Under the pieces are notes generated by a model, which saw only the letters and a list, made by a program, of their open reading frames with translations, ran no database searches and was not told where the DNA came from. 64,000 bases of DNA, taken from positions 33,091 to 97,090 of the IMG/VR virus record IMGVR_UViG_3300045993_000281, one strand, 5' to 3'. A program made the position numbers and the translations under genes. This document shows positions 7,276 to 63,929 of the stretch, piece after piece (position 1 is the first letter of the stretch; every line of letters begins with the position of its first letter). The stretch comes from a virus. Its lineage: Duplodnaviria; Heunggongvirae; Uroviricota; Caudoviricetes.

Positions 7276-7339
7276 TTTCTTTCCTTTAAAAAAATTACCC
7301 CTGACAGAACCTGTAGGTACAGGCGCCATCAGGGGCTGG

Positions 7340-7663
7340 TCAGCGATATTCTACTATCGTTCCATTGGGAATTACGTGTGGGTTTTCTAACAAAACTTTT
7401 TCTACAAAAAATCCAGGTGCTTGCTTAGAGCTACCAGCATTTAGTTCTTCTATATAATCTTTGCTGTTGGATATGACTAATCCATGCGCAGTTACTTCTA
7501 CTTTCCACGCACGGCTAGCCTCTCCTGTATCTTTTGGGGTAGCTTCCTCTAATCGGCCAACGAGTTCGTTAGCAACCGCCAGAAGTTTAGTCCGCTTGGA
7601 CTTCGCTATTTCAACATCTAGGAAGGACATTGTTTCTGAGATACCGCGTATTGTGATACTCAT
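7340..7663 (-). CDS. Hypothetical small protein just upstream of the tape measure gene (tail assembly chaperone-like by position)
   Basis: 107-aa ORF; start overlaps the stop of the preceding ORF (ATGA); position typical of chaperone genes before a tape measure gene. Confidence 0.45.
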   Translation of the reverse strand: MSITIRGISETMSFLDVEIAKSKRTKLLAVANELVGRLEEATPKDTGEASRAWKVEVTAHGLVISNSKDYIEELNAGSSKQAPGFFVEKVLLENPHVIPNGTIVEYR

Positions 7664-12679: not shown

Positions 12680-15600
12680 TTAACCTATTCCATACCAATA
12701 CCTGTTCTTGTCGAAGTTTTCATCAACATTTCGCAGTATATCAGCACGCGTTAGGATATCCTTCTCTGTCAGAAGCTTACCATCGATACGTGACCGTCCT
12801 ACCACAGGTATCAGGCCGGTATCAATAGCTTCGTTCAGATACTTATCATACAATTCTTTAGGCAAGCCTCTGTTCAGCATCTCTTGAAGGGTGGCTTTAA
12901 TTGACTCGGACTCGACGGCATCGCCGTATATTCCGCGTAACGCGCCACGTGCTCTGAGCATGTCGGAAACATTGGTAAAGAAAGCATCATGAATAGTTGA
13001 AGTACCCACATCAATCTTCTTTCCCCACAGATGAAACTGTTTAACCAATGTAGCGTCATTTGAGTGATTACCATTAACAGCAAAAGCTGTCCTGGCCTTG
13101 TTAGTATCAGTAATTGCGTTTATCTTTCCAGATTTGCCTCTGAACTCTTCCCACCAAGTCGGGTTAGTCTTCTGGGGTACCTGCAAAATATTAGTAACCC
13201 AATGACCATCTTTGTCTTTGTAGTTCAGACGCTCTTCAAACACTTGCGTAAAGTTTTGCTCTATGACTTTTCCGTCAAAGTTAACCCAAGGTATATTATT
13301 CCATTGTTTAGGCAACTTGTTAGGAATGCCGATTTCCATTCCTTGCGTAATGTCCTCAGAGAACAATGAGAAGTTCCCTATCTTGAAACCAGTACGTCTA
13401 GTCGCTGGCGGTGCTACGCCGTTCAACAATTCTGCAGAGATACTAGATGGTAAATAACCCGGAATTCTGTTAAGTAATTTTGTGCGAATAGGCTCATCTT
13501 TGATGGCAAGAATGCGGCTCAACCATTTTGGTAAACGGTCTCCACCATGCTTTTCCCCAAGTAAATACGTTCGCAGGGCAGTGTTGTAGTCCAAGCTACT
13601 GGCCTTTGGCTTCGCATGTAATGCAAAATCATCGGCCAGCCTACCGAAGAACTTAGTGAAGTCACGTAGTATCGGGACTTGAGTGCTCAAATGCTCACTC
13701 ATTATCTTTGCTATCTGCTGGAAATCGTCTGGAGTAACAACTCTTTCATATTCCCTGCTAAGTTTTTCAACAACGTCACGTGTCTGCGAGTCGAGAAAAT
13801 AGAGTTGATCCATAATCTCGTCGCCTGGGTTTAGCCCTTTGTTGAATATATCCTTGACATCTTGTCTTAATGCCTTGAGTTCCAGATACTTATCTTGATC
13901 GAACTTCTCGTATCTGGCCATTCGCGCACTTATTTCGTTTAGTATTTTGTCACGATCAACAGCCTTAACCACAAGCGTTGTGTCTGACTTCTCCAATACC
14001 TTTGCTAGTTTGCCTTCTACGTTCAGGATTCCAGTTCTTTCTCCTGCGCCGTAGAATGTAACCATGTTCTGCGCCTTACTAGCCTTACGTAGATCCTTCT
14101 CAGTCAATCCCAGCTTGACATTAAGTTTCTTGAAGCGTGGGTCATTAAAAGTAGAGTGCGCGATTTCATCATACAATCTTTGCTTTTGATCAGTCGGGAT
14201 TACGTTGCTCAACGCAGCTAACTGTTTGTTCTTGGTTGTGAGTGCAATAATCTGCGCACCCGAGGACGACGCGTCTTGCTCTAACGCTAATGCAGTACTG
14301 TAATCTTTCAACCTTAATAGACTGTTTGCGCTGTAATCGCCCCGTAGAAACTCATCAATCTTGGACATCTCTAAAGCAAATCGTAGTACTTTCCCTTGTT
14401 CTTCACCGTCAATTTGCGCTAAGAACTTTGAGTCAAGCACTCTGCGAATATCCGCAGGTTTTCCTCTTCGCATCGCATCTCCAAGCATTATTAGATCTTT
14501 ACGGTGTTGCATGGCAATTTGTTGACGACCGAGTACAGAAAGAGAATTATACTTACCCTCTAACGCATCCGATGTGCCGCCCAGAAAGCCTCCAATTTGG
14601 TCTTGCAAGTTCTTAAACCCAAGCGCACTGAAATTCTTACTTTCAGCTGTACTCAGAAATGGACGAAACGTCTCGCCCGATTGTGGACTTATAAAGCCTC
14701 TCTCGTAGATACGACCACGGTGGTCTAGAAAGGGATGATTGCTAAACGCAGCATCTTTCGCTCTCAGCCATTCCATGGACTTTAACCGCTCATATGCGTC
14801 TCCACGTTCAACCATGAACTCACGGTATTTGTTTAAGTTATTATAGTACTCAGCCTTGCCCTTGTCATCCTGAAAGTTTATCAGTTTAACTATAAAATCG
14901 TGGAAGTCTGCGTCTATCTTATATTTTGTCTTTGCAGCCCAATTAAGCGCATCCGTCAAATCTTTGTCGATCAGCCCTAATGGGACTTCACTCGAAGCAA
15001 TCTCGATGCGCGTATCATACAAGCCCAACAAACCATCATCCACGTGGTATGTGTTATACCCTTCGCGAATCAGTAATTCGTTCTTCTTGGTGGTAACACC
15101 AATCCTTAAACCAACGTCCACCTTTCTGGTTAGCTTGGCGTACTCTTGTATGCGTGGGTCTGTTATTCTAAGGTTAACCGCGAATGTATCATAGTATGGC
15201 CCGAAATAAGCGCCAAAATTCCTGCTTTTCATACGACGCTTCTGTACACCAAAGGTTTCCAACTCGTAGAAACCCTTGTTATTTGCATCGTCAAGAATCT
15301 TTACACCTAGATTGTACCATTCGTTACGGCTACCTCTGTAGTTGGCCATATTGTACAAATCACGACCGAGTGCAACAGCAAGCTGATCTCTATCAGGATT
15401 GTCAGCTAGGCTCAATCTCCTCGCAAACTTCAAATAGAAATGCTCTAAGTCGTGGTCTTCAATTCTTCTTTTTAATTTAACGGGTATCTTGTAATCCAAT
15501 ACATTTCGTAATTGCTTAGCTATTCGAGGCGCTGTGCGATCTTCCCAATCATTCTTAGCTTTTATGTTTGCTATAAACCCGTCAGATAGAGATTGCAACT

Positions 15601-17287
15601 GAACAGGCCCCAAGACAGGGTCAATATAATTGGCTTGTTTTAGCTTCAACAAAAGGTTGGCATCACGTCGTATCTGTGTCTCCATATAGTCAGATACGTT
15701 CATAATATCGAACTTAATCTGACCTTGAAGGACAGCCTTGAAGTTAGCCCATGCCTCTTTGTTGTCCCTGAAACGACTGAACGTTATGCGCAAGTTTTCT
15801 GTAACGACAGCGCGCTCATTTACGCCCATCCTGTCTTCTAAACCATCGACGAAACCTTTTATGAATTCCTTGTCCTTTGGCTTCAACAGGATACTTTCAT
15901 CCACGTTCTTGTAAGCATTCTCAAGCGTGGCTGGGCTTGGCTGATACATACGCGCATCTTCATATCTACTGGTAATCGGATTGAACTTAAGATTAGCCTC
16001 AGAAGGTGGCGTCGATAGTACACGTGTCTTAGTAGCCTTCTTGGTATGTAACAACGCACCGCGATAATTGGTAAGCGACAGTGTTCCGTCTAATTCGCCT
16101 GCCTGTAACATGTAGTACTCTTTAAGCGCCTTTTGAAGCTCCAAATCGCCATAAAAGTCATCAGGTCGTGCAGCACCTAATTTAATAGTATCAAGTCGAT
16201 CCTTTGCAGCTGCAAACCTTCTGGTGTCTCCAGGTATTCCGTAACCTGAAGTCGTGAGCCTGTTAAGTTCTTTAATCCCAATAGAGTTGCCTGAGGAGTT
16301 GGTGAACTGACTGACGGTAAGTTGCCCGGCCTGGTATGCTTCAACCTTTTTAAGATCACCGAGGTGCTTAAGCTGTACTTGCGTAGGCTGTCGCTGCAAC
16401 CATTCATTGTAGGATTCCTTTAACGGCGTCTGCCCGTCATAAAATGCAATCTGTTTTTCTGTAAGCCCTGCCAAGTTACGTTTACGTATCTGGGCAATGC
16501 CTTCTGACTTGGCAAGCTCATCGTAACTTTTAGTGATAGGCGTGGTTGAAGAACGACAGTACCAATGTGCTGGTGGCAGGTGTTCTGTGTCGCCTACAGG
16601 GTAAATTGTTCCATCACGTCCTGCACATAGCGGCGTAGTACGAGTGTCCAGCACTGCCACATATTGCCATCCTTGCAAGACTTTAGCGTTAGCCTTATAG
16701 ACTTCCTGGTCGGCTTGCGAATACACAGAAGTGGTTGCGGTGACAACAAGCCCCTTTGCTTGATTCTTAGTGATCGCGAAGGTACTTTTAGTAATTTCTT
16801 TGGCGATGTCGCCAGTAGGTAAACCTTCAGCGATACCTTTACGGATTATTCCTTCAATACGAATCTTTTCATTCTTACCGACACCCGCCCAACCCTCTGA
16901 AAGCGTTAGGTTCTGATACAAAGGTTTATGAAGCACGACCTCCTCCGCAACACGGCGTGGAGGTGTAGCTACATGCCATATATCAGACACGGCTTCGCTA
17001 AGGTTGTTAACTGTATGGGATATCTGACTTTTGAACAAGTCAAGCAAGGCTCTAGAAGTCGTATTATGAGCATTAGACATGGTCTTAATGATCTCTGCGT
17101 CTAGCGCCTTCTGGAAACTAGCGAAATCTTTTCCTTGTAGTTTAGATTCTCTTACTAGTTTGTCTACGCGTATGGCGTGACCATCTACGATAAGTTCGAC
17201 TTTCGAAGAGGTGCGTTGCTCATATAAGCGAACCATTGCGGCTCTATCGACACTTTTATCATAGATAAGTGTATTGGCGTTAGTCAT
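12680..17287 (-). CDS. Fusion of a Mu-F-like minor head protein with a T7-like single-subunit RNA polymerase (1535 aa)
   Basis: An N-terminal Mu-F/SPP1 gp7-like motif is present at residues ~205-250 (GWQYVAVLDTRTTPLCAGRDGTIYPVGDTEHLPPAHWYCRSS). C-terminal single-subunit RNAP signatures, in order:
- FLDHRGRIYERGF (compare T7 RNAP DWRGRVYAVSMF)
- DASSSGAQIIALTT (motif A, compare DGSCSGIQHFSAML)
- KASKAQNMVTFYGAGERTG (motif B with Lys and YG)
- TIHDAFFT (motif C, compare IHDSFGT). Confidence 0.8.
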   Translation of the reverse strand: MTNANTLIYDKSVDRAAMVRLYEQRTSSKVELIVDGHAIRVDKLVRESKLQGKDFASFQKALDAEIIKTMSNAHNTTSRALLDLFKSQISHTVNNLSEAVSDIWHVATPPRRVAEEVVLHKPLYQNLTLSEGWAGVGKNEKIRIEGIIRKGIAEGLPTGDIAKEITKSTFAITKNQAKGLVVTATTSVYSQADQEVYKANAKVLQGWQYVAVLDTRTTPLCAGRDGTIYPVGDTEHLPPAHWYCRSSTTPITKSYDELAKSEGIAQIRKRNLAGLTEKQIAFYDGQTPLKESYNEWLQRQPTQVQLKHLGDLKKVEAYQAGQLTVSQFTNSSGNSIGIKELNRLTTSGYGIPGDTRRFAAAKDRLDTIKLGAARPDDFYGDLELQKALKEYYMLQAGELDGTLSLTNYRGALLHTKKATKTRVLSTPPSEANLKFNPITSRYEDARMYQPSPATLENAYKNVDESILLKPKDKEFIKGFVDGLEDRMGVNERAVVTENLRITFSRFRDNKEAWANFKAVLQGQIKFDIMNVSDYMETQIRRDANLLLKLKQANYIDPVLGPVQLQSLSDGFIANIKAKNDWEDRTAPRIAKQLRNVLDYKIPVKLKRRIEDHDLEHFYLKFARRLSLADNPDRDQLAVALGRDLYNMANYRGSRNEWYNLGVKILDDANNKGFYELETFGVQKRRMKSRNFGAYFGPYYDTFAVNLRITDPRIQEYAKLTRKVDVGLRIGVTTKKNELLIREGYNTYHVDDGLLGLYDTRIEIASSEVPLGLIDKDLTDALNWAAKTKYKIDADFHDFIVKLINFQDDKGKAEYYNNLNKYREFMVERGDAYERLKSMEWLRAKDAAFSNHPFLDHRGRIYERGFISPQSGETFRPFLSTAESKNFSALGFKNLQDQIGGFLGGTSDALEGKYNSLSVLGRQQIAMQHRKDLIMLGDAMRRGKPADIRRVLDSKFLAQIDGEEQGKVLRFALEMSKIDEFLRGDYSANSLLRLKDYSTALALEQDASSSGAQIIALTTKNKQLAALSNVIPTDQKQRLYDEIAHSTFNDPRFKKLNVKLGLTEKDLRKASKAQNMVTFYGAGERTGILNVEGKLAKVLEKSDTTLVVKAVDRDKILNEISARMARYEKFDQDKYLELKALRQDVKDIFNKGLNPGDEIMDQLYFLDSQTRDVVEKLSREYERVVTPDDFQQIAKIMSEHLSTQVPILRDFTKFFGRLADDFALHAKPKASSLDYNTALRTYLLGEKHGGDRLPKWLSRILAIKDEPIRTKLLNRIPGYLPSSISAELLNGVAPPATRRTGFKIGNFSLFSEDITQGMEIGIPNKLPKQWNNIPWVNFDGKVIEQNFTQVFEERLNYKDKDGHWVTNILQVPQKTNPTWWEEFRGKSGKINAITDTNKARTAFAVNGNHSNDATLVKQFHLWGKKIDVGTSTIHDAFFTNVSDMLRARGALRGIYGDAVESESIKATLQEMLNRGLPKELYDKYLNEAIDTGLIPVVGRSRIDGKLLTEKDILTRADILRNVDENFDKNRYWYGIG

Positions 17288-41430: not shown

Positions 41431-41506
41431 TGGCAGCCGGTGATGGATTCGAACCACCGCATAATGGGATCAAAACCCACGGCCTTAACCGCTTGGCTAA
41501 CCGGCT
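41431..41506 (-). tRNA. tRNA-Gln (anticodon UUG)
   Basis: Cloverleaf with a 7-bp acceptor stem, D-loop AGCCAAGCGGTTAAGGC, anticodon loop TTTTGAT, T-loop GGTTCGAATCC, and a 3' ACCA-less CCA end encoded. Confidence 0.8.
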
Positions 41507-41577
41507 ATTGATTGGTGGAGGCCTTTCACCCCCAGGTATGAACAGAACTGTGATATTCTGAGCACATCTTTACAACT

Positions 41578-41653
41578 TGGTAAAGTGTACGGGATTCGAA
41601 CCCGTGATGCTGCCTTGAAAGGGCAGAGACTTAGGCCTCTTGTCGAACACTTT
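41578..41653 (-). tRNA. tRNA-Glu (anticodon UUC)
   Basis: Acceptor AAAGTGT/ACACTTT, D-loop containing AGAGGCC, anticodon stem-loop CTGCC-CTTTCAA-GGCAG, T-arm ACGGGTTCGAATCCCGT, CCA end. Confidence 0.75.
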
Positions 41654-41892
41654 ATTTGTTAATAACAGCTCTAGGCATGTGGTCAAACAGGACTTGTCCT
41701 GCTCTTGTTGGAAACCAAACACGGTGCGATTGATAACTTTGCGTACCGTACTTTACAAAACGACATGAGGCAACGAATGTAAATTCGGACGCCCAATGAT
41801 ATTCGGTTAGTAACCAGAGCAACGCGTCTTTATGTTCTTCTGCCGCATACAATTCAATTTCTCGTCGGACTTTCATGTCAAGCCTCTCATGT

Positions 41893-41967
41893 TGGTGGTT
41901 GTGGATAGAATCGAACTATCGGCTAACGGCTTATCGGGCCGCTACTCTACCGCTGAGTTACACAACC
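41893..41967 (-). tRNA. tRNA-Ile (anticodon GAU)
   Basis: Acceptor GGTTGTG/CACAACC, anticodon stem-loop GCGGC-CCGATAA-GCCGT, T-arm GATAGTTCGATTCTATC, CCA end. Confidence 0.7.
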
Positions 41968-41971
41968 TTGT

Positions 41972-42047
41972 TGGTGGATCAGGTTGGAATCGAACCAACG
42001 ACCCTCTCGCTACCTTCGCGAGGCTCTACCTGCTGAGCTACTGACCC
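41972..42047 (-). tRNA. tRNA of uncertain isotype (atypical anticodon loop GAAGGTA)
   Basis: Acceptor GGGTCAG/CTGATCC (one G-U pair), D-arm GCTCAGCAGGTAGAGC, T-arm GTTGGTTCGATTCCAAC, CCA end. The best anticodon stem, CTCGC/GCGAG, leaves a loop GAAGGTA that lacks U33. Confidence 0.55.
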
Positions 42048-43971: not shown

Positions 43972-44175
43972 TTATATTATGCGCTTACCATCTGCGCCGT
44001 AGTATTTGGGGCATGTCCAGAAGCCCTGTGGTGTTCGCCCATCAAGCATGTCGAGGAGCGTTGTTGGAGCCTGTATCCAATGCAACCCACGAAGCCCACA
44101 ATTACTACATGTGTGGGCTTCGTATTGCAATTTCTTCGCAGTCTCACGGTTCTTGAAACGCTGTTTACGGTTCAT
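43972..44175 (-). CDS. Small zinc-ribbon-like protein
   Basis: 67 aa with CSNCG...CPKY. Confidence 0.4.
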   Translation of the reverse strand: MNRKQRFKNRETAKKLQYEAHTCSNCGLRGLHWIQAPTTLLDMLDGRTPQGFWTCPKYYGADGKRII

Positions 44176-45587
44176 TGTATGGCAGCGTACCGTGGTGAGT
44201 TAATAACACTCCACATCATGCCTTCTGGTGTCAATGACTCATCGTCGCAAGCCAAGATCGACTTCATGATAGCTGGAGAGAATCCTGAAACCAACATGAC
44301 ACCTTGTTCGTTGGCAGTAGCAGGAACGTTATTATACGCACCATTCAGATTCCAAAACACGATGGTCGGTGGGGTGTAACCTGCTGTTTCATAACGCGCC
44401 CGAATCATTTCCAACCCAGACTGGTTTCCACACTGATTGAACTGCATGTCGCTTAGAATCAGTAACACTTTGGGCATCTGCTCCTGTGTTGCACCCGCTG
44501 AAATAGTACGGCTTAAGAGCAAGTTGAATGCGGACGTAATATCCGTGGTCATCCCCCAAGGGCAATTTTGCAACTGCATACGACGTTCGTCTAGCGTGCC
44601 TACCAGTTTGATCATTGAAGGTGTTTCGCTGAACGTAATGATCTCGTCCTTGAAAGTCCCCTGCTGACGTTCGGAAATGTACAATCCGAGAGCCAGCGCA
44701 ATGTCCATGCAACTTGCATTTCCACCGGCTTTTGCACTAGACATGCTGCCGCTGACGTCTACCATTGGAATCATGCCACTGCTACCTTCCATGTAATTCG
44801 GAAGTGCAGCCCATTGCGCTTCAGCTGTCACAATGTCGCCATTCCTAAGTCCGACAATTACGTCGTGTGGAAAGATAGCTGCGGCATTAACTTTAGTCTC
44901 GCCGGTAGCCAATCCCTTCTGCCATTCTTCATAGCGGGTTGCCTGATGCTTCTTGAAGGCCTTTTGATAGGCTTTGGACGCGATGGATGGAACGTGAGAG
45001 AAGTTTATGTCATCCCATTTACGGGCACACATTTGCTGCTCGACCGTTTTGCTGAGTGACGCGATGGTCTTGCGGTATTCCTTTGGGGACATGCCGAGCC
45101 CTTCACGCAACGCCACAGCTACTCTACCCTTGCGTGGCATCCATTTGGCACATAAGGCGTCTCCATTGCTGAGACCAGATTTTACCAGCGTCACACTGAT
45201 TGGCATCAGGCCTTCTGAGATCGTAGTGATCTTTTCAGAGACTACGCGTTCCGCAGTTATCGCCAGCACATCATCCCAACGACCATATTCTGGGATATGT
45301 GGGATAAAACGATTAACGGCATGCGGGTCGACACGTTGTAGCAAGTTAAGACAGTCGCGAAAGACCTTGCGTTCGCCTGCACCGCCACGGACATCGCGCG
45401 CCCAGAAAAGAATCTTCATAGCGTGGATGCCGTGTGCCTGGTAGGTGTTCACAAATTGTGAAGCAATGTTGGGGTTGTTGCGTGCTGCACCTATTCCAAA
45501 GAAGAGGTCAACTAATGAACTTGTGGTGCTTACCAACGCTTTCATGCCGTTGGTTGTTTCGGTTTCGTTTTCAGTTAAGAATGACAT
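44172..45587 (-). CDS. von Willebrand factor A (vWA) domain protein, possibly Ro60/TROVE-like
   Basis: 471 aa. MIPMVDVSGSMSS is a MIDAS-type motif (DxSxS) in a vWA-like context. A ~260-aa helical domain lies N-terminal to it. Confidence 0.55.
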   Translation of the reverse strand: MSFLTENETETTNGMKALVSTTSSLVDLFFGIGAARNNPNIASQFVNTYQAHGIHAMKILFWARDVRGGAGERKVFRDCLNLLQRVDPHAVNRFIPHIPEYGRWDDVLAITAERVVSEKITTISEGLMPISVTLVKSGLSNGDALCAKWMPRKGRVAVALREGLGMSPKEYRKTIASLSKTVEQQMCARKWDDINFSHVPSIASKAYQKAFKKHQATRYEEWQKGLATGETKVNAAAIFPHDVIVGLRNGDIVTAEAQWAALPNYMEGSSGMIPMVDVSGSMSSAKAGGNASCMDIALALGLYISERQQGTFKDEIITFSETPSMIKLVGTLDERRMQLQNCPWGMTTDITSAFNLLLSRTISAGATQEQMPKVLLILSDMQFNQCGNQSGLEMIRARYETAGYTPPTIVFWNLNGAYNNVPATANEQGVMLVSGFSPAIMKSILACDDESLTPEGMMWSVINSPRYAAIQ

Positions 45588-45629
45588 TTTTTTCCTTTTA
45601 AGTTAGCAGAATCTACATAGTCTTTTTCA

Positions 45630-46075
45630 TAGAAAGGGTTGGAGTTGCTGTAGAGATTCTATTGTTTATATCGGTATCCTTGTATGGGGTACGACCCACT
45701 CTCCGTAGACCAAAGGTCCTAGATTAAACCAAGGGTGTTGCTGAAAAGATACCATTTATAGCGGAAGCCATGCCAACACTCTCGTGTTAGCGGTTCTATT
45801 AAAAGTAGAGGGCATTGTGTGCAGAATGGCTTCCATTTAATTACAAATCAGGATGTACGTCTTTTTAGCAGAAAGGGAGATTGCTGAAGACATCCTGTTT
45901 TAATTACGTAGACAGAGTCTCTTTGATACGCGGATGCCCTTACGGGCGAGAGGGTTTGCTGTATAGACTCTAAAGTTATTTCGGTTATCGGGATTTTATT
46001 CACATCTCCTAGGGTAATTGCTGTATAAATCCCATTGTACTACTTCGGCTTTATCGGTTGGGTATGCTGAAAACA
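45630..46075. repeat. Six dispersed copies of a GGG-N(1-7)-TTGCTG-(T/A)A motif, several followed ~17 nt later by T(A/T)TCGG, in a 558-bp non-coding spacer
   Basis: Copies: aaagggttggagTTGCTGTAgag, aagggtgTTGCTGAAaag, aaagggagaTTGCTGAAgac, gagggtTTGCTGTAtag, tagggtaaTTGCTGTAtaa, gttgggtaTGCTGAAaac. Also an 8-bp inverted repeat caggatgt...acatcctg, and catcct...aggatg. Confidence 0.6.
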
Positions 46076-46145
46076 TCCTACCTAATCAGGATGGTTACTA
46101 CATCAACCAACCTCTTGGACGTTAACACCCAATAGGTCAGCTAAT

Positions 46146-47627
46146 TCATTTGCTCTGAATTCGAGCACGTATTTCTGACAGTGTTTGAATTGGACCAATT
46201 CGGAAACCGTCTTCAAACACCACCTTTAACTGATCACCTGTTATGTCGCCATGTAGCGGTAATTCGTCTTCATAATAGTAGTCGCCATAGCCGTCTTTCA
46301 AAACCACAACACGACCTTTCTGCGACTTCTTTGTACCATCATCGGTCTTCGGATTCTTGAAGATATGGCGCTCCTGCCCATTTACTACAACTACTGTGGA
46401 CTTTAGAGCGAATCCGAAAGTGTCGCGTGTGTTGTACTGATACGTGAAGCTGCCAATACCAAACACACAATTGATCGATGCAAATCCCTTCAGGTACAGC
46501 AGATTGACGATCTGTCGGGCGCGATCGATAGTAATTGAATCACCATAGATTGCGCCGATATGGGAGTCCAATAGCTTAAATCCCTTGGGCGATAATGTAC
46601 CACCAAAGAGATCCCACAGACACTCAATAACGCCTTTGTAGACCATGGTGCCAGGTTGTGCATCAGAGTCACCGCAGATGATCTTGACAGGGTCGCCTGA
46701 ATCAGGACGTATAACCAACTTACCGTCACGCGCCATGATGTCATCCTTAAGTAGCGGCAGCACACGCCCGATAACATCCCACAAATCCCATGTATCGGAC
46801 ACAACAGAGAGGAAGCCTGTAGGGTACACGTCGTTAATCAGACGTTTAAAACTGACCATATCGTCTTCATACGCACACATGACGCTATGCTCAGTTGCCG
46901 GTATGGAAGTGCCGACCAACTCTTCGTCCACATTTGCACCATAGTACTGCTCTAAATACGGAATTGCAGGAACAGTATCAGTGCCCTGGAAGCTTGTCAA
47001 GTGTGCAGCGCCTGAACGGGATGCAGCAGAGATGCTTGACAGACCACGCATAGAGAAATCATGTCCCTGAAAAGGTACGAAATCCGTATTACCGACAGTC
47101 AACATTGCCGCTTCATTTAGTAACTGGCGATACTGATCAGCAATCGTTGCACTTGTGTAACCAAGCCACAATTCTGAAGACATAAGTGTCTCTAGATTGT
47201 TGGTCAACCAAGCGAATTTCTTGTCTGTATTATGCACGGTAAACGCAGGGCAGCGAATAGGGCAACGTGAGCCTTCGGGAAGTGCCTTAATCAACAGTGG
47301 GAGATATCCGAGAAAGTGCAAATCCCGTATGTGTTGTGTTTCGACATCTTTGATACCCAATGATTTGCCAACAGTACGTGCGTAGTCGTCCACGATGATA
47401 TCAATCGGAGCATCGAAGAAGTTATCATTGAAGTAATCAATCAGCCACTCTTGAATAAATCCCTGCAGTCCGAAGACCACGACCGCGTCGACTCCTGGCA
47501 AACGTGTTGATCTTGGTGTCCATGTCGAGTACACTACCTCTGTACCTGGTGGATACTGGACGCGGTGAAATAGTTTGTAGAAGTCGGTCAGACACATCGG
47601 ATTAAGCTTTTTCAAATTGTTCTCCAT
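46146..47627 (-). CDS. nadV: Nicotinamide phosphoribosyltransferase family protein (NadV/NAMPT-like; possibly a Namat-type enzyme)
   Basis: 493 aa. MCLTDFYKLFH matches (TDxYK), and VIRPDSGDPVKII matches the NAMPT RPDSGD motif. Confidence 0.8.
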   Translation of the reverse strand: MENNLKKLNPMCLTDFYKLFHRVQYPPGTEVVYSTWTPRSTRLPGVDAVVVFGLQGFIQEWLIDYFNDNFFDAPIDIIVDDYARTVGKSLGIKDVETQHIRDLHFLGYLPLLIKALPEGSRCPIRCPAFTVHNTDKKFAWLTNNLETLMSSELWLGYTSATIADQYRQLLNEAAMLTVGNTDFVPFQGHDFSMRGLSSISAASRSGAAHLTSFQGTDTVPAIPYLEQYYGANVDEELVGTSIPATEHSVMCAYEDDMVSFKRLINDVYPTGFLSVVSDTWDLWDVIGRVLPLLKDDIMARDGKLVIRPDSGDPVKIICGDSDAQPGTMVYKGVIECLWDLFGGTLSPKGFKLLDSHIGAIYGDSITIDRARQIVNLLYLKGFASINCVFGIGSFTYQYNTRDTFGFALKSTVVVVNGQERHIFKNPKTDDGTKKSQKGRVVVLKDGYGDYYYEDELPLHGDITGDQLKVVFEDGFRIGPIQTLSEIRARIQSK

Positions 47628-48369
47628 CTTTGGTGAATATGCGTTTTATACCTGCTTCACGCAGGATTGCGGTACCCTTTGAGAAGATGCCATGTGATAC
47701 GTATAGGCTTATCTCTCTGTCAGGCATTAATTTTGCGAGACTGATAAATGTTGCACCACCATCACAAATGTCGTCAACCATAAGAACAGATTGTCCTGGT
47801 GGTAATTCCGGCATTGCTGTCGTGATTATTTTACCAGTACTACGATCTCGTAACTTCATTGCGGATATTACAACTACCCCTGAAAGCAGAAGATCTTTGT
47901 ACCTTTCTTGAGCGCCTTCGTCAGGAAACACAACGATGTCTGCCATTACTGAACGCATGGCTTCCTGTATTTCTAGCCCTGGAGTGAGAATTAGGACATT
48001 CGATAAGCAGAGCCTAACGTAAGGAGGATTGTGTGGATCGAATACGGACACCTTATCGAACCCAATATCCTTAATTATCTGCAAGAATACAGACAACGCA
48101 AATGTTTCTGTATTACCTACTGCCTTGTCTTGCCTGGCATACGGGAGATATGGTAGGTGGAGATTAATCTCAACAAACGCATTTCTCTTTTTACCAAAGT
48201 CATACAATAACCTATACAACTGTGCTAAGTGCATCAATTCACCCTCGTGCTCAAACTTCCATTCTATGTTATAGCAGCGAGCATATTGATCAACTAGCAA
48301 GTGCCAAACTTGGCTTGTCTTGTCGGGAAACATTGTTACAGGTACGGGTGCGCCATCCAGATATAGCAT
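47602..48369 (-). CDS. Ribose-phosphate pyrophosphokinase family protein (PRPP synthetase-like; possibly an ADPR-PP synthetase)
   Basis: 255 aa with the PRTase motif LMVDDICDGGATF and a VSHGIFSKG loop. Its 3' end overlaps the downstream NAMPT gene. Confidence 0.8.
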   Translation of the reverse strand: MLYLDGAPVPVTMFPDKTSQVWHLLVDQYARCYNIEWKFEHEGELMHLAQLYRLLYDFGKKRNAFVEINLHLPYLPYARQDKAVGNTETFALSVFLQIIKDIGFDKVSVFDPHNPPYVRLCLSNVLILTPGLEIQEAMRSVMADIVVFPDEGAQERYKDLLLSGVVVISAMKLRDRSTGKIITTAMPELPPGQSVLMVDDICDGGATFISLAKLMPDREISLYVSHGIFSKGTAILREAGIKRIFTKDGEQFEKA

Positions 48370-48558
48370 TCAGCCTCCACTTAGATTAACTACTTCGACG
48401 GGTTTAAATTCAGGTGCAGGTATTCCTAGCACCATTGGGGCAAGTAATATGTTTCCTTTTACCATGAGTGTTGCGGCGATCTTTGCTTGCATGGCATTGC
48501 AGCCTTGCTTAAATGCTTCTTCGTTTGTCATGTGGTTCTCCTTATAGTTAAAGACCAC
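48370..48558 (-). CDS. Hypothetical small protein
   Basis: 62 aa, coupled to the upstream gene. Confidence 0.35.
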   Translation of the reverse strand: MVFNYKENHMTNEEAFKQGCNAMQAKIAATLMVKGNILLAPMVLGIPAPEFKPVEVVNLSGG

Positions 48559-50245: not shown

Positions 50246-51112
50246 TCAAATCCTTGATAACGTGTGCCTGCGATCTACCTTGAATCCTGCGGAGTGTTTA
50301 TGACCACCGCCGCCGAATCTTACTGCTATCTCACTTACATCTAATGCGTCTGGATTAGAGGAGTGAGACCTCAACCCAAAGTTCCTGTAGTCTTTCGTGT
50401 CATAATACAACGCGACAAAACGATTCGTTCGTGTCAATCTTTCTGCCACATCATTGAAGAACAGGCTAGGCGCGTTTACTAGGACAGTCGGATGATCGTC
50501 AATAACAGCATCTCTGAGCGAAGTTTCTGCTATTCTAGCACAATCCTGCTGCTGCTTCCTTTCGAGTAGTCCACCGTCTTTGATCATTCTAACCAGGCCA
50601 GCCTTAGTGACACTCATCATCTTGTCCCATACTTTGAATTCAAAATCTTGAAGTGTAACGTACGCCATTATTTCTTTGGTATACAGTAAGTTAAACTTCC
50701 ACAGATCGTAATCCTCTACATGCGCTAATACTTGCGGCATCTTTTTCGGCTTGCCCAGACTCAGTCTATGTGCCCATTGTACGTAATTCCATGCCAATAC
50801 AGCGCCGGAATGTTCTTGTGAGCTATGCTTCATGCTGAGTCCAGCAGTCTCCAAATCCCAAAGATCTTCCAACGCCGACTTGTGGTGATCAATGAGAGTG
50901 ACACTTTTGGCTGCAGAAAGAATGTCCTCTACTACGTTCCTTTTGTAGCTGAAATCCACTAGGAACACGTCCCTGTCAACTACATCTGGAACCTTGCCCT
51001 GATATACGCCTGGGTGATAATCATATGTATCTTTGTATTGGTTCCAGAAACACCATGCTGCACCAAAACCATCCGTACAGCCCTTGTGATAAATTACGAT
51101 CGGCTTGTTCAT
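50246..51112 (-). CDS. DHH-family phosphoesterase (NrnA-like nanoRNase/pAp phosphatase type)
   Basis: 288 aa with LVDFS..., VTLIDHHKS (DHH motif) and FGGGGHKHSAGF (DHHA1 GGGH motif). Confidence 0.75.
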   Translation of the reverse strand: MNKPIVIYHKGCTDGFGAAWCFWNQYKDTYDYHPGVYQGKVPDVVDRDVFLVDFSYKRNVVEDILSAAKSVTLIDHHKSALEDLWDLETAGLSMKHSSQEHSGAVLAWNYVQWAHRLSLGKPKKMPQVLAHVEDYDLWKFNLLYTKEIMAYVTLQDFEFKVWDKMMSVTKAGLVRMIKDGGLLERKQQQDCARIAETSLRDAVIDDHPTVLVNAPSLFFNDVAERLTRTNRFVALYYDTKDYRNFGLRSHSSNPDALDVSEIAVRFGGGGHKHSAGFKVDRRHTLSRI

Positions 51113-51647: not shown

Positions 51648-51858
51648 GCTTTCTCTCCTTAAATTGATAACAAGTACCTAGATGATTTACTGTCTTCTTT
51701 TTAACACTACAACGAGTGAGACCGAATCGGGTCGCACTATGTCCACACTTTTCACAAGTATTACAACTCGCTTGGTTGGCTTTCTCTAATTTACGTCTGT
51801 CAGCATTTTCGCTAGCTAACATACGCCCCTCATGCGCCATGGACTCTGTCATATACAT
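51628..51858 (-). CDS. Small zinc-ribbon-like protein
   Basis: 76 aa with CNTCEKCGH...C..K. Confidence 0.4.
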   Translation of the reverse strand: MYMTESMAHEGRMLASENADRRKLEKANQASCNTCEKCGHSATRFGLTRCSVKKKTVNHLGTCYQFKERKLATSNQ

Positions 51859-52661
51859 TATATTTCTGGCTCAAAATGATCGTCTTCGCTGAAGTCTTCT
51901 TCAGTACCGTCTATCGCTGCAAATATATCGGAAACGAACTCACCGTAGTTAACCGGAAGACTGTCCTCATATTTATCAGGGAATCGATTAAGAAGACCCT
52001 GCAGGAACATTGTGTCTATCCCCATCAACTGCTCTTTCAGCTGCTTGTACGTATGTATCTTCAGCTGTACAATGGAGAGGGCAATATGCATGAGCGTGCT
52101 GCCTGAGACTGTGTATCCACGTGCGCCATACTTCTTGGTACGATAGAGGGCGCAAATCGGATACTTTGAACTGCCAGCGTATACCAATCTACGCGCTACT
52201 AGGTCTGGAAAGAATCGCTCGCCCAGCTCAAAGATATCTGCGGAGAAGTTGAATGCGCCATGTGTTATCGTGAAATCGAAATCATCGAAGATTTTAGCAG
52301 GGGTTCCAGAGAATCGTGTGATCAACTGTACTGTCCATACTTTACGGCTTTTTGTAGACTTGCGTTTGTAGGTAATAGCGTTTTCTGTCTTAAAGGGCGT
52401 CTCTAAAAATATTGTCGCTAGGAATTGTTTGGCTTCTTCAAGTTTGCTAGGGTCTTGTAGATAGAAGTCCAGATCGTTAACCGATCGGCCTGTCATCAGA
52501 CTATTGATAGCGCCCCCACAAAGTAGGATGGACAGTTCACCTAATCGGTGCGTCCCAATCTCAGTATTTGCATCGAATCCGAAGAATTGATTTACTACAC
52601 GCCTAAGTTTTGCTTTCTCTTTCTCAAGCGACATGTACGTCGCTGTTAACAGTTTCGTCAT
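51858..52661 (-). CDS. Nucleotidyltransferase-fold protein candidate
   Basis: 267 aa. LLCGGAINSLMTGRSVNDLDFY fits GG-x11-DxD. Confidence 0.45.
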   Translation of the reverse strand: MTKLLTATYMSLEKEKAKLRRVVNQFFGFDANTEIGTHRLGELSILLCGGAINSLMTGRSVNDLDFYLQDPSKLEEAKQFLATIFLETPFKTENAITYKRKSTKSRKVWTVQLITRFSGTPAKIFDDFDFTITHGAFNFSADIFELGERFFPDLVARRLVYAGSSKYPICALYRTKKYGARGYTVSGSTLMHIALSIVQLKIHTYKQLKEQLMGIDTMFLQGLLNRFPDKYEDSLPVNYGEFVSDIFAAIDGTEEDFSEDDHFEPEI

Positions 52662-59698: not shown

Positions 59699-61345
59699 TT
59701 AAAATTCGCTCACTTGTGTATGCACTGGCTCGAATTGTTCCTCAGAGAGTGCAGTTAACCGTCCAGTCGCATGATTGTAGGTAGCGCCTGGCACCATCCC
59801 AGTAAGTCCTATTGTTCTGCTCTTCAGCACAGCCATAAGCAGGGTGTTCTTAACAAATTCGTCCGCAGCCAGCGAATTCCTCGCAAATGCAATAATGTCA
59901 AACGAAACTTGCTTTATACTACCACTACCACGAATATCATCTAGGCTTGGTAATCGTCCTTCTTCAAAGGACTTCCCGCCTGTCTGTACTTTTCGTAAGT
60001 GGCTAATCAAACCTATCCATGCATTGTGTCTCTTGACTACACGCAGGAGGTCATTCATTATTTTGTCAATTGCTTCGTTACCTGTCAAACCTTCAGCGCC
60101 CTCGCTCACCAGTATGGTAATGTGATCTATGACTAAGTATTTGCATCCCATGAGACACATGTACTCTAGCTGGGTGATGATAGATTCGTCTTTAATTGAG
60201 CCTTGATGGTCAAGGACTATTACACGATCATCGCCGAATACCTTGTCAAAACCAACCTTTAAATCTTCCTCGATAATCTCTTCATTGGCAGGATTCCGAT
60301 GGATCATCATCGCAGCGAGTTTAATTCCAGTCTCACCAGGAGACTCCTCTAAAGAAATAATACCAACCTTGTCGCCAGTTGTCTCGATAATGTGCAAGAC
60401 AATCTCACGAATCAGCGTGCTTTTCCCAGCACCCGTTCCGCTAATAAACAAAGCGATTTCACCGCCACGCATGCCCTTGACCTTAGAGTTCACACCTGCC
60501 ATACATGCAGGGTAAGGTACGCTTGGTGTGTTGTTTCTCTCTACAATCTGTTTCCAGATGTCCTCTTTAGAAATGATGCCTACAGGCGACCACTTCTCAG
60601 CGTCCCAGATGCACTGTAACAATGTCAGTCCATCCTTTTTCGTAAACACTTCGCTTGCGTCTTTGAACGGCATCTTGCAAAGTCTTACTTTGTCAATCCC
60701 TATAATCTTGATCGCTTTCTCGGTAGCTTCTGTACCCGCGTCATCCATATCAAAACATAGGACGACCTCCTCAAAGCTTCTTATCCAGTCGCGGTGTGGC
60801 AGCAATTCTTGCGTGCCCTTAGAACTGGGTAGCGATATTACAGGATAAAACTTACCATACTTATGAAACTGGGCTTGTGCAACTGTTAGTGCGTCAATTT
60901 CGCCCTCGGTTATTACTAACCGCTTCCCACCACCATTGAATAGGTCTCTTCCAAATAGGCCACCAGCTTTCCCAATCCAATTGAAAACTTTAGGTAACCT
61001 GCGCTGCTTGTAACCACCACCTGAATAGGGGTAATAATGGGAGTCTATCTTTCCATCTGAACCGTAACTCACCTTTACATTATAAAATTCACAAACATCT
61101 TTCTCAATCAGACGTTCTATAAATCCCCGAGAATGTAGGGCTTCGATCTCTGTCAAGCTTGTTTCCGACATATCCTGCACCTCGTCCCTTGGTATAAATA
61201 AAAAGTCCGCATCGTGGTCTTTCCTAAAGAATTTACTACAGCTGAAACAATAGCTGGTGCCTTCTTCATATAACCTACGAGCGTCAGATGAACCACAGCC
61301 TTTTACATCAAGACAGGGGAGGTTTGACTTTACTATCTTGCTCAT
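59699..61345 (-). CDS. Primase-helicase (T7 gp4-like)
   Basis: 548 aa, with three parts in order:
- N-terminal zinc ribbon CLDVKGCGSSDARRLYEEGTSYCFSC
- TOPRIM/primase LVITEGEIDALT
- DnaB-like helicase with Walker A ISGTGAGKST. Confidence 0.85.
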   Translation of the reverse strand: MSKIVKSNLPCLDVKGCGSSDARRLYEEGTSYCFSCSKFFRKDHDADFLFIPRDEVQDMSETSLTEIEALHSRGFIERLIEKDVCEFYNVKVSYGSDGKIDSHYYPYSGGGYKQRRLPKVFNWIGKAGGLFGRDLFNGGGKRLVITEGEIDALTVAQAQFHKYGKFYPVISLPSSKGTQELLPHRDWIRSFEEVVLCFDMDDAGTEATEKAIKIIGIDKVRLCKMPFKDASEVFTKKDGLTLLQCIWDAEKWSPVGIISKEDIWKQIVERNNTPSVPYPACMAGVNSKVKGMRGGEIALFISGTGAGKSTLIREIVLHIIETTGDKVGIISLEESPGETGIKLAAMMIHRNPANEEIIEEDLKVGFDKVFGDDRVIVLDHQGSIKDESIITQLEYMCLMGCKYLVIDHITILVSEGAEGLTGNEAIDKIMNDLLRVVKRHNAWIGLISHLRKVQTGGKSFEEGRLPSLDDIRGSGSIKQVSFDIIAFARNSLAADEFVKNTLLMAVLKSRTIGLTGMVPGATYNHATGRLTALSEEQFEPVHTQVSEF

Positions 61346-61553: not shown

Positions 61554-63929
61554 TTAGATTATTGTTTTCTCTACCGTATACAACGATACTCCGTGACTAC
61601 ACAACAGACGCCACAAACCTATCGCGTACTGAATTGGCCACAACACATTCTCCTCTACCTTAGGCAAATCCGAATTCTGTCTTTGCACATAAAAGTTTTT
61701 AGAGGCGTGGTCATAAACAACCTCCAGCACCTTCGGGCATGTTTCACTGAAGTGCAGCGTCCAATTTGTGAAATCTAGCGCCAACTTCACTTGAGAGTAA
61801 CCTGCTGCTCTGAGTGCCCTTATAACTTCGGCCAATTCACCGGAATTACTTACAAGAACGGCTTGTGAACCTATCTTGTATTCTTTGAACTCCTCTTTGC
61901 CAAGACGTCCAGTCACGAGATAACGAACATACTCCGATTTGTGATACTTAAACATACTACGGAATCTCTCGTCTTCCTTAAGAAGAAGTGACATTATCCA
62001 TTTCTGTTTCGACGGAAACTCTTCCTGTATCAGCACCAGATTGTTCAACTCATCACCGGTCAAGATGGTGGGTTTAATGGTATAGTACTGCAGCAGTTCG
62101 AGAATATTAGCTTCGGTAGGCCTTTCGTACGCTAATGGCGGATTCTCCAGGAGTCGTTTGTAATTACCAAGCACCCACTTAGCCTCATCGTAGTCAAAGT
62201 TCTTCTTAAACGCCACGATACTGGAATTAGCGTCTACAGGTGGTTTGGCATTCTCTGCAATAAATCTCTCGAATCCGATCTGGCGGAGTTCGCCGAGCAA
62301 TTCTACCGAGTCAACTTTATACCGTAGTCCAACTGGAAGAAATACCAGTTGTTTTAGATTAGCGCTGTAGTCGCCTGAAAACGTCCTTACTTTTTCCAAA
62401 TTTACACTAATGCCATAGTACGCCAATTGAACAGCGATGTCCTCTACTGTTTTGTCCATCTCACCCTTGTCATGCCCGAACAGCAGTATATCGTCAACAA
62501 AGGAATAGCAGTCAACGGCATTTCGTAGCAAGTACGACATTACAATCGTGGACAGTGCATGCTCATAATTAGAGTCAATTGTGAGTTTGTCCAAACAACC
62601 GTTTGCAGTCATTGCTTTTCTGATCAAGGACAGTGCGCGTTGGCATCCGTCTCTTTGCTCTTCGTTGCAAAAATACATAACTGCGTCTTCTACTAGCTTG
62701 TAGGTAACCTTGTTAAAGAAGTCACTTAAATCAAAATACATGCAATGTTGGAACTTCCCACTAGCCTTAACACCAAGCTCCCTGTACAGGTTGTAGGTGT
62801 AGATATACGGTATTAGTCTCCCGTCATTGATGCGGCTACCAAGGTTGGACGTCGGTATATTGAGCAATCCATACAGCTTGTCTACACCTACTGCCATTAG
62901 AATGTTGTCGAAGTCCGACCGAAATTCCATAAGGCGGTTTCCTGCAAACTTCTCACCATTTTTGGGGACAAACCGTGAAGGCTTTATAGAGAACATCGTG
63001 TCCAGCGTCCGAACACTGTCCGTGAAACGTGAACGGAAGACTTGATATGCTGCGTCGTCAGTTGTCTCCAGCGCCTCAAACAGAAGCGCGGTGAAGTTAT
63101 CCTGATAGACGGAATAGCCCAAATGGTCGTACTGAATATGCTTAGAGATATTTGTGCGTAGTGAGGACACCACCCGTTTCAATTCTTTGTACGAGGCGTA
63201 TTTGGCATACGTCATGCCCAGCCCCAGCTGGTTCGCGTAGAACTCTGTCAAGTCCTTCGGCAAGTCGCCTACAAGACATGTGCCTTGTTCAACTAATCCG
63301 TACAACAGAAAACTAGGCTGTGACGTCATATTTTTGGGGTTGGAGTACACAACTATTCCAGTCTCAGGCTGTAAGTACTTTCCAATCAACTGTGAATCTT
63401 TTGCGTAGAACTTGTTTTCGTCAGATGATGAAACGAACTCCTTGACTTTGTTATTACCACCGACAATCTGATACTCGAATAGAATATCTTCCGCATCTTC
63501 GCCGGATACAAAGCTTTCTATTCTTTCCGCGCGTGTGTTTATTTCAAAATTAAACAACAATTTTGCGCTAGCACCGAACCGGTAACCGGATAACGACATG
63601 TCTTCAAGCTTTACTGCTTGTGATGACATTTGGTAGTCAGCATCACGATACCGATTAATGAAGTACTGAGTACCTTCATCCGTATCAATAGCCTTCCGGA
63701 CAGTCTGCGGCACAAGCCGGATTTGTTCGGTGGCGTGTCCCAGAATCTTGCAAGAGAACCGCTTAGCATTGTCTGCCAAGTACTTCTTGTAGAACCTTTC
63801 AATGTTATCCGTGAGATACACCACCAACTGAGCCGCGCTGGTTCTGCTGTGTATCTCGCGAGCCAACACTAGTGTCATCTTGATTTTCGAATCATTTATT
63901 GTTGCAGTTATCTTTTGCATTTTATTCAC
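61554..63929 (-). CDS. Reverse-transcriptase-like polymerase (791 aa) with large N- and C-terminal extensions
   Basis: RT motifs in canonical order at residues ~319-515:
- Motifs 1/2: RFVPKNGEKFAGNRLM, SDFDNILMAVGVDKL
- Motif A: MYFDLSDFFNKV
- Motif B': HALSTIVMSYLLRNAV (compare QG..SPLLANIYL)
- Motif C: YSFVDDILLFG (YxDD)
- Motif E-like: GISVNLEKVRTF (compare GLxLNxEKT). Confidence 0.75.
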   Translation of the reverse strand: MNKMQKITATINDSKIKMTLVLAREIHSRTSAAQLVVYLTDNIERFYKKYLADNAKRFSCKILGHATEQIRLVPQTVRKAIDTDEGTQYFINRYRDADYQMSSQAVKLEDMSLSGYRFGASAKLLFNFEINTRAERIESFVSGEDAEDILFEYQIVGGNNKVKEFVSSSDENKFYAKDSQLIGKYLQPETGIVVYSNPKNMTSQPSFLLYGLVEQGTCLVGDLPKDLTEFYANQLGLGMTYAKYASYKELKRVVSSLRTNISKHIQYDHLGYSVYQDNFTALLFEALETTDDAAYQVFRSRFTDSVRTLDTMFSIKPSRFVPKNGEKFAGNRLMEFRSDFDNILMAVGVDKLYGLLNIPTSNLGSRINDGRLIPYIYTYNLYRELGVKASGKFQHCMYFDLSDFFNKVTYKLVEDAVMYFCNEEQRDGCQRALSLIRKAMTANGCLDKLTIDSNYEHALSTIVMSYLLRNAVDCYSFVDDILLFGHDKGEMDKTVEDIAVQLAYYGISVNLEKVRTFSGDYSANLKQLVFLPVGLRYKVDSVELLGELRQIGFERFIAENAKPPVDANSSIVAFKKNFDYDEAKWVLGNYKRLLENPPLAYERPTEANILELLQYYTIKPTILTGDELNNLVLIQEEFPSKQKWIMSLLLKEDERFRSMFKYHKSEYVRYLVTGRLGKEEFKEYKIGSQAVLVSNSGELAEVIRALRAAGYSQVKLALDFTNWTLHFSETCPKVLEVVYDHASKNFYVQRQNSDLPKVEENVLWPIQYAIGLWRLLCSHGVSLYTVEKTII

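Follow-up and report, generated by a model that had tools for sequence, protein, structure and literature searches.

A probable NARP1-type NAD+ reconstitution operon in a tailed phage lineage without cultured relatives

In the phage NAD+ reconstitution pathway NARP1, Adps, a homolog of ribose-phosphate pyrophosphokinase (Prs), pyrophosphorylates ADP-ribose (ADPR), and Namat, a homolog of nicotinamide phosphoribosyltransferase (NAMPT), joins the resulting ADPR-pyrophosphate (ADPR-PP) to nicotinamide, yielding NAD+ (Osterman et al., 10.1101/2024.02.11.579819). The same study identified NARP1 in 859 phage genomes, 4.3% of those surveyed, found that 97% of the Adps-clade genes adjoin a Namat gene, and defined NARP2 as the combination of a true Nampt with a nicotinamide mononucleotide (NMN) adenylyltransferase (NMNAT) (10.1101/2024.02.11.579819). 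Namat selectivity has been attributed to a clamp comprising a helix with the motif GSXΦXΦXΦTRD, in which positions 3 and 7 are aromatic, and a β1-β2 loop that is extended and bears a stacking Arg, Lys or Tyr (PMC12774641), and the Adps of phage ICP1 is distinguished by a remodelled phosphate-binding (PP) loop (C215-S220) that binds the ATP donor, Lys185 on a β-hairpin, an acceptor groove and the loss of α11-α12 (PMC13586617). Here we describe two adjacent genes in a 64,000-nt stretch of tailed phage DNA (positions 33,091 to 97,090 of the IMG/VR record IMGVR_UViG_3300045993_000281; hereafter, the window) that very probably form a NARP1 operon, that is, a phage counter-defence pathway.

Both genes lie on the minus strand. 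The first (47602..48369; 255 aa, ATG start), denoted adps-like, is predicted to encode an ADP-ribose pyrophosphate synthetase, NARP1 enzyme 1, and the second (46146..47627; 493 aa, ATG start), denoted namat-like, a nicotinamide ADP-ribose transferase, NARP1 enzyme 2. The preliminary description of this DNA had placed the two open reading frames (ORFs) exactly there, and the 26-nt overlap it reported, in which the end of adps runs into the beginning of namat (47602..47627 on the minus strand), suggestive of translational coupling, can be read directly from the sequence. The overlap holds if namat starts at its first ATG (47627); were translation to begin at the second ATG of the frame (47597), the genes would not overlap and 4 nt would separate namat from the adps stop. 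With either start, the two genes are tightly coupled. On record, both exact proteins, from the same gene calls on a 97,090-bp JGI metagenome contig, bear the automatic names "ribose-phosphate pyrophosphokinase" and "nicotinamide phosphoribosyltransferase". The motifs on which the initial family calls were based are present: the Prs-like protein contains VDDICDGGAT (residues 198-207), and the NAMPT-like protein contains TDFYK (TDxYK; residues 14-18) and RPDSGD (residues 307-312). The calls themselves stand far above chance, with matches of the NAMPT-like protein to PF04095 (E=4e-43), PF18127 (4e-07) and phrog_448 (8e-187), and of the Prs-like protein to phrog_619 (E=2e-54); the match of the latter to PF00156 is weak (E=2e-4, under the gathering score). 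A megablast search of the 2.2-kb pair region against 50,697 phage records returned no match, and GC content is unremarkable.

The NAMPT-like protein is 59% identical, over 484 residues, to the Namat of SPβL1 and scores 630 bits against the structures of that enzyme (PDB 9W5W/9W5X) versus 193-207 bits against human and Xanthomonas NAMPT. Its putative adenine-clamp helix, GSFTYQYNTRD (G392, F394, Y398, D402), fits the Namat consensus, its positions 3 and 7 being aromatic, and, in the alignment, is identical to that of SPβL1 across the entire 19-residue segment. The β1-β2 clamp loop (TPRSTR42LPGVD) equals the corresponding SPβL1 loop (TPRTSR40VEDID) in length, with Arg42 aligned to the stacking Arg40 of SPβL1, and the catalytic core is intact (D15, Y17, F191, R194, D217, H247, R307 and D309, corresponding to D13, Y15, F189, R192, D215, the catalytic His, R306 and D308 in SPβL1). 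As positive controls for the clamp, we used 8 NAMPT-family proteins encoded next to Adps (SPβL1, FADO, ICP1, Av-05, Bantam, PhAER-3 and two metagenomic loci), and as negative controls, the Nampts of phages ACP17 and LucasX, encoded directly after an NMNAT/Nudix gene, and the Xanthomonas (Xcc) Nampt; human NAMPT was also compared. The motif GS[FY]T[YT]QYxTRD was found in every Adps-linked control protein in the alignment, whereas the NMNAT-linked phage Nampts and the canonical Nampts contain GG(A/G)LLQ..RD in place of the aromatic clamp, and the β1-β2 loop of the NARP2-type and Xcc Nampts is 5 residues shorter than that of the window protein. The alignment against characterised Namats that had been proposed as a check, with its close identity and exact clamp motif, thus sets the protein apart from the NMNAT-linked Nampts, and we consider it to be a Namat with a predicted preference for ADPR-PP over phosphoribosyl pyrophosphate (PRPP).

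Membership in phrog_448 was rejected as a discriminator, given that NARP2 Nampts score comparably. A NadV-like protein deposited as 'nicotinamide phosphoribosyltransferase' (PDB 9ke8/9keo) carries GAQTYQRNTRD, with no aromatic residue at motif positions 3 and 7; the 9ke8 protein did not occur in the phage collection. NARP2 systems of the KVP40 type, represented here by ACP17 and LucasX, share with the pair in the window the NAMPT catalytic core and, as predicted for that pair, the NAD+ product and the role in counter-defence against NAD depletion, but their Nampt gene is preceded by a bifunctional NMNAT/Nudix gene, in contrast to the Prs-like gene in the window.

The Prs-like protein is a more distant relative of the characterised enzymes, with about 25-26% identity to the SPβL1 Adps, 30% to the ICP1 Adps and 23-24% to the E. 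coli Prs. An Adps-type PP loop is nevertheless recognizable: the window protein contains D199-D200-I201-C202-D203-G-G-A-T207-F208, near-identical to the ICP1 loop (DDICDGAASF), and not the DDMIDTGGTL of E. coli Prs, and the Thr of the Prs ribose-5-phosphate loop (T225) is replaced by G204. The putative catalytic Lys, K172, located on the predicted strand 171-174 of a β-hairpin, corresponds to K185 of ICP1 and K162 of SPβL1, and the acceptor-groove residues of ICP1 are kept as well: R79 (R87 in ICP1), H113 (H121), D150 (D161), and D199, D200 and D203 (D212, D213 and D216). Of the two adenine contacts of ICP1, F18 is kept (F14) and F92 is replaced (Val84). The N-terminal helix of Prs (~17 aa) and the last ~40 Prs residues, with the C-terminal α11-α12 module that serves filament formation and regulation in PRPP synthetases, are missing in the window protein, as they are in all aligned Adps.

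Profile comparisons point in the same direction. Against TIGR01251, the window protein scores 74.2 bits, compared to 98 for the ICP1 Adps and 106 for the SPβL1 Adps, all below the cutoff of 113, and to 423 for E. coli Prs; on all ten matching NCBIfam Prs models the window protein falls far under the cutoff, whereas E. coli Prs scores 423-533 bits. In a neighbor-joining tree of 21 sequences, 3 canonical Prs separated from 18 Adps-like proteins, among them the window protein, in 198/200 bootstraps, and the window protein was placed inside the Adps-like clade, in a subclade with sequences from metagenomes and metagenome-assembled genomes (MAGs); the tree supports the Adps placement without settling it. 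An AlphaFold2 model of the protein (predicted local distance difference test score, 94.1; predicted template modelling score, 0.88) gave as its top Foldseek matches exclusively PRPP synthetases, with template modelling (TM) scores of 0.71-0.77 at ~20% identity (7XMU, TM 0.77), the PDB set behind this comparison being older than the Adps structures. With E. coli Prs, a class I PRPP synthetase, the protein shares the two-domain fold and the R, H, D, K and DD residues. Taken together, these observations suggest that the Prs-like protein is a distant Adps, for which ADPR-specific activity is predicted from sequence.

The nearest relatives of the window Adps, at 42-51% identity, are thousands of metagenomic proteins of 245-275 aa. 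The large short subclade to which it belongs is known from metagenomes only and shows a conserved N-terminal FPDKTSQVW and Val or Ile at the position of ICP1 Phe92. Most members of the family have V, I or M at this position, and a deletion removes it in the validated Adps of SPβL1 and FADO, so that Phe92 would not be a family-wide requirement for Adps.

Side-by-side comparison with the two best-matching described loci underlines these relationships. SPβL1 NARP1 and the pair in the window share the adps-namat order, a tight junction, the clamp helix (VFGIGSFTYQYNTRDTFGF), the clamp-loop Arg, the Namat catalytic core, the Adps catalytic Lys and the lack of the Prs termini, but the SPβL1 Adps has the PP loop DDLSSFGGTF in contrast to the ICP1-type loop in the window, and the window Adps is 17 residues shorter. 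Conversely, the ICP1 Adps (NrsA, F1D1Q1) shares the PP loop, the THGIFSKG segment, the loss of α11-α12 and a Namat-type partner, NrsB (GSYTYQYVTRD), but differs in having Phe223 where the window protein has Ser210 and in being 25 residues longer, and the ICP1 genes are separated by a 33-nt intergenic gap, whereas those in the window overlap.

The searches for NMNAT and accessory genes covered the 64-kb window and 10 kb past its right end, that is, ~74 of the ~97 kb of the genome. A Pfam scan of the 66 window ORFs of at least 100 aa, in which 26 families were found, identified no NMNAT (CTP_transf_like), Nudix, Macro, RyR, PnuC or NadR domain, and neither did precomputed Pfam annotations of the called genes within ±10 kb of the pair and in the right 10-kb flank; by the same Pfam evidence, there is no NARP3-type PnuC and NadR pair in the window or the examined flanks. 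Searches with tblastn and phmmer using two phage NMNAT/Nudix proteins as queries gave a best E value of 0.66, compared to 1e-54 in a cross-phage control. The earlier observation that no NMNAT adjoins the pair thus extends to the whole window and its right flank, and the whole-genome search that had been suggested was carried through for ~74 of the ~97 kb. Two elaborations of the pathway share the core pair with the window: NARP1-AP, which adds the Macro-domain phosphatase Adpp (10.64898/2026.01.28.702374), and NARP1 with RyDEP, an RyR-domain glycosidase (10.64898/2026.05.28.727677). Neither a Macro nor an RyR gene is present within ±10 kb of the pair or among the window ORFs of at least 100 aa.

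To assess the generality of the gene arrangement, we examined other viral and bacterial loci. An Adps-like gene followed by a Namat-type gene was seen in all 6 cultured phages inspected (SPβL1, FADO, ICP1, Av-05, Bantam and PhAER-3) as well as in two relatives from metagenomes. When IMG/VR was searched with an alignment built from the subclade of the window protein, 80 viral Adps-like loci were obtained, every one of which contains a NAMPT-family gene, located downstream on the same strand within 1.5 kb in 77 loci; among the 43 loci nearest to the window protein, 41 have the NAMPT-family gene downstream. The adps-namat gap in the 77 loci has a median of 92 nt, and the two genes commonly lie close together (from -19 to some tens of nt). 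The Namat-type clamp was identified in 77/80 viral loci and an NMNAT domain within ±6 kb in none of the 80.

Several loci depart from this pattern. In three IMG/VR loci (L138, L164 and L178), an Adps-type gene ([VI]DD[IL]CDGG) is paired with a clamp-less NAMPT partner carrying GGLLLQ(Q/S)H(N/S)RD, a hybrid pairing that lies outside NARP1 and NARP2 as defined. Variant clamps were observed in other Adps-linked NAMPT genes, namely, GS[FY]VYGMNSRD (L060, L070 and L111), GS[FY]TYNM[LI][ST]RD (L093, L106, L108, L114, L116, L176, L199 and L202) and GSFSMECLQKD (L082), and may mark subfamilies with different adenine recognition. In one metagenomic relative (L009), a gene with a NADAR domain, which is ADP-ribose-related, is located two genes downstream of namat (6939-7412), and in Aeromonas phage PhAER-3 a 123-aa gene lies between adps and the namat-like gene (L005 4127-4498); both are possible extra NARP1 accessories.

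Adps-like genes are also common in bacteria. We found at least 548 Adps-like stretches in genomes and MAGs and retained 80 loci (L043-L122), in 65 of which a Namat-type gene follows the Adps-like gene and in 47 of which a Nudix-family gene is nearby. Apparent NMNAT matches in these loci were rejected: all of them aligned with the Nudix half of the query, none with its NMNAT half. Bacterial hosts of the Adps-type PP loop include Pedobacter, Achromobacter, Flavobacterium, Shewanella, Pseudoalteromonas and Acinetobacter. The loci appear to resemble the 'prs-nadV' operons under the ADPR-sensing Nudix-like repressor NrtR, which would suggest that the NrtR-type prs-nadV operons are bacterial NARP1.

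Within its own lineage, the pair is variable. We identified 18 IMG/VR relatives that share the backbone upstream of it, consisting of a 318-aa gene, a Gad2-like gene, sometimes a DHH gene, and then a 221-aa gene. In all 11 of the backbone relatives with at least 2.5 kb of downstream sequence, adps, namat and the adjacent DUF2828 gene are missing. Its lack at this position in the 11 relatives marks the pair as an accessory insert that varies within the lineage, as expected of counter-defence cargo.

Should the pair act as NARP1, the following sequence of events can be envisaged. A host immune effector of the SIR2, TIR or SEFIR type (Thoeris I, DSR1/2, SIR2-HerA and others) would split NAD+ into ADP-ribose and nicotinamide. 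Adps, a stripped-down version of the PRPP-synthetase fold, would then move the β,γ-pyrophosphate from ATP onto ADP-ribose, at its 1'' hydroxyl, producing ADPR-pyrophosphate, and Namat, with its NAMPT fold and adenine clamp, would allow nicotinamide to displace the pyrophosphate, giving NAD+ directly, without NMN or an NMN adenylyltransferase. The genes would be co-transcribed and translationally coupled, with a 53-aa ORF abutting adps upstream and a strong hairpin following namat.

Several considerations weigh against assigning the pair to NARP1. The identity between the window Adps and the validated Adps (SPβL1, ICP1 and FADO) is 25-30% at most, and the short-form subclade (245-265 aa) to which it belongs includes no characterised member. 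Phe92, the adenine contact in ICP1, is Val84 in the window protein. phrog_619, tried as an Adps/Prs discriminator, was rejected, with E. coli Prs scoring 193 bits against 186 for the window protein, and so was overall Namat identity, given that the clamp-less 9ke8 protein is 58% identical to the SPβL1 Namat. Only three canonical Prs served as the outgroup of the tree, those from E. coli, B. subtilis and S. solfataricus, of which two are partial sequences, and the method was neighbor-joining rather than maximum likelihood. An NMNAT could lie in the remaining ~23 of ~97 kb. Finally, the activities of the enzymes, their substrate preference and an anti-defence phenotype are predictions from sequence. 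Of the homology to characterised NARP enzymes on which the preliminary description hinged, the Namat half proved close and the Adps half distant. It is also conceivable, albeit very improbable, that the short Adps subclade differs in the acceptor or donor that it prefers (modified ADP-ribose, for instance), or that the 53-aa leader ORF is a third component.

The alternative of classical nicotinamide salvage, in which the Prs-like protein makes PRPP, the NAMPT-like protein makes NMN, and the synthesis is finished either by the host, through NadR, NadD or PncC, or by a phage NMNAT outside the examined DNA, appears improbable; the role would then be NARP2-like or one of generally boosting NAD. 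The generic family annotations of both proteins, and the phrog_619 profile, on which E. coli Prs scores no lower than the protein studied here, would agree with it, but the Prs-like protein stays under the cutoff of every curated Prs model, and the Thr of the Prs loop, the helix at the N terminus and the module at the C terminus are all missing from it. Namat enzymes do keep PRPP-to-NMN activity in vitro (10.1101/2024.02.11.579819; PMC12774641). The SPβL1 Adps gave no measurable PRPP-synthetase product (10.1101/2024.02.11.579819). Mixed pairings exist in nature, as in the 3 of 80 viral Adps loci with a clamp-less partner, whereas in the window protein the Namat clamp, missing in NMNAT-linked Nampts, is complete. 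While ~23 kb of the genome lie outside the examined DNA, no NMNAT was found in ~74 kb or in the 80 related viral loci, and phage Bas63 still escaped defence in a ΔpncC ΔnadR host (10.1101/2024.02.11.579819). Thus, the Namat clamp, the Adps PP loop and the lack of an NMNAT in ~74 kb support the preference for NARP1 over NMN salvage expressed in the preliminary description.

The chemistry could also be that of NARP1 but serve housekeeping or auxiliary NAD+ homeostasis during infection, drawing on ADP-ribose from any source, rather than counter-defence; of the readings considered, we regard this as the least probable. The frequency of bacterial Adps-like genes, with their Namat and Nudix linkage, is compatible with such a role, but no Nudix partner of the kind typical of the bacterial clusters was found with the phage copy in the ~74 kb examined. 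Similarly, the original authors noted non-prophage bacterial NARP1 with no assigned role (10.1101/2024.02.11.579819), whereas all tested phage NARP1 (Bas63, FADO, SPβL1, ICP1, Gary and DyoEdafos) act against NAD-depleting defence according to the cited papers, whose authors also consider ADPR to be scarce unless a defence system fires. The pair is set among genes for nucleotide metabolism and replication (ribonucleotide reductase, an HD-domain protein and a primase-helicase), yet its lack at the same position in the 11 related phages suggests that it is dispensable, as would be a conflict-type accessory gene.

The genes flanking the NARP1 candidate, namely, DHH, Gad2-like and DUF2828/DUF7788, are not conserved beside NARP1 in other viral loci. 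Directly downstream of the repeat-containing gap that follows namat (see below) lies a gene for a 471-aa protein with DUF2828 and DUF7788 (44172..45587, minus strand; phrog_850, 'RNA-binding protein'). Because it is missing in the same 11 relatives, the DUF2828 gene may have arrived together with the pair or in the same variable slot. The Gad2-like gene (51858..52661, minus strand; 267 aa), 3.5 kb upstream of the pair, has a precomputed match to PF26128 (anti-Gabija); local Pfam gave no match, and its relatives in cultured phages, 28-32% identical, are annotated as 'hypothetical proteins'. The gene belongs to the conserved backbone of the lineage, not to its variable cargo. A DHH/DHHA1 phosphoesterase gene (50246..51112, minus strand; phrog_4771) is located ~1.9 kb upstream of adps, and an unrelated viral contig (L203) encodes a 37%-identical DHH protein (2517-3326) ~700 nt upstream of its own Adps-Namat pair. 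The DHH gene was considered as an Adpp-like NARP1 accessory and rejected: it is present in NARP1-less relatives (L213, L218, L021 and L032) and adjoins NARP1 in 1/80 other viral loci. We found nothing specific in the literature on an anti-defence role of phage DHH enzymes, and a functional link between DHH and NARP1 is unlikely.

Further afield, the phage encodes a T7-type RNA polymerase domain, a family A DNA polymerase, a class II ribonucleotide reductase, an ATP-dependent ligase, a 1535-aa ORF (12680..17287) and a weakly matching AcrVA2-like protein (L008 4795-5709), as well as four tRNAs (41431..42047; Gln, Glu, Ile and Pro). The closest DNA polymerase from a cultured phage is 37% identical (DSS3 roseophages), and there is no close cultured relative. 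The ~97-kb genome is probably circularly permuted or terminally redundant because two Logan contigs appear to tile it. In the replication module, the gene just upstream of that for the primase-helicase (59699..61345) and beside a SegE-like GIY-YIG gene encodes a 791-aa protein (61554..63929, minus strand) with a weak match to a reverse-transcriptase (RVT_1) domain, an unusual neighbour for a DNA-phage replisome.

Upstream of adps lies the 53-aa leader ORF (48370..48531, minus strand), called as a gene, whose TGA stop abuts the adps ATG (GGAGGcTGAATG). AAGGAG is found 7 nt before the leader-ORF ATG and GGAGG just upstream of the adps ATG. The leader ORF is probably on the same transcript as adps and may only deliver ribosomes to it. 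It has no Pfam match and no homolog in the 80 viral and 80 bacterial Adps loci; the possibility that it is an aRad1-type aRES inhibitor was rejected, the predicted peptide containing no Trp and having no homolog in these 160 other Adps loci. At the opposite end, a stem-loop of ~19 bp (46102..46145, minus strand; palindrome I1), present in both the minimum free energy and the centroid folds, starts directly after the namat stop. Because it is not followed by a U-tract, we do not call it an intrinsic terminator, but it is a candidate operon 3' end or processing site. Simple scans for σ70 promoters and intrinsic terminators, in this phage that itself encodes a T7-type RNA polymerase domain, performed at chance level.

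A 558-nt gap (45588..46145) that holds no convincing ORF separates namat from the next gene. It contains ~6 degenerate direct copies of a 25-29-nt repeat, whose core reads (T/A)ACAGCAAnnCCC on the minus strand, at an irregular spacing of 46-143 nt (~45637-45665, 45731-45759, 45874-45902, 45948-45972, 46011-46039 and 46057-46085). The core pattern occurs 20 times in the window, compared to 5.5±2.5 expected, with 5 distinct sites in the gap. A search of the gap against Rfam gave no match at the gathering score, just noise at E values up to 5, and the fold z-score was -1.9. The repeats could be iterons, promoters of the phage RNA polymerase, protein-binding sites or modular RNA.

The pair adds a further case to a pathway that hundreds of phage genomes are already known to encode, here in a phage lineage with no cultured relative. 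Overall Namat identity and PHROG membership do not discriminate such pairs; a rule that relies on sequence, combining the Adps PP loop DD[IL][CS]DGGxTF, the Namat clamp GS[FY]x[YF]Q[YF]xTRD and gene adjacency, could be used to sort them. Applied to the present locus, it corrects two misleading automatic names, "ribose-phosphate pyrophosphokinase" and "nicotinamide phosphoribosyltransferase", to the pathway in which both proteins are likely to act. Because no Adpp phosphatase gene was found in the window or the examined flanks, on present knowledge rescue of NAD+ after aRES (ADPR-1''-phosphate) attack would not be expected; the prediction is that the phage escapes NAD+-depleting defences, including type I Thoeris, DSR1/2, SIR2-HerA and SEFIR.

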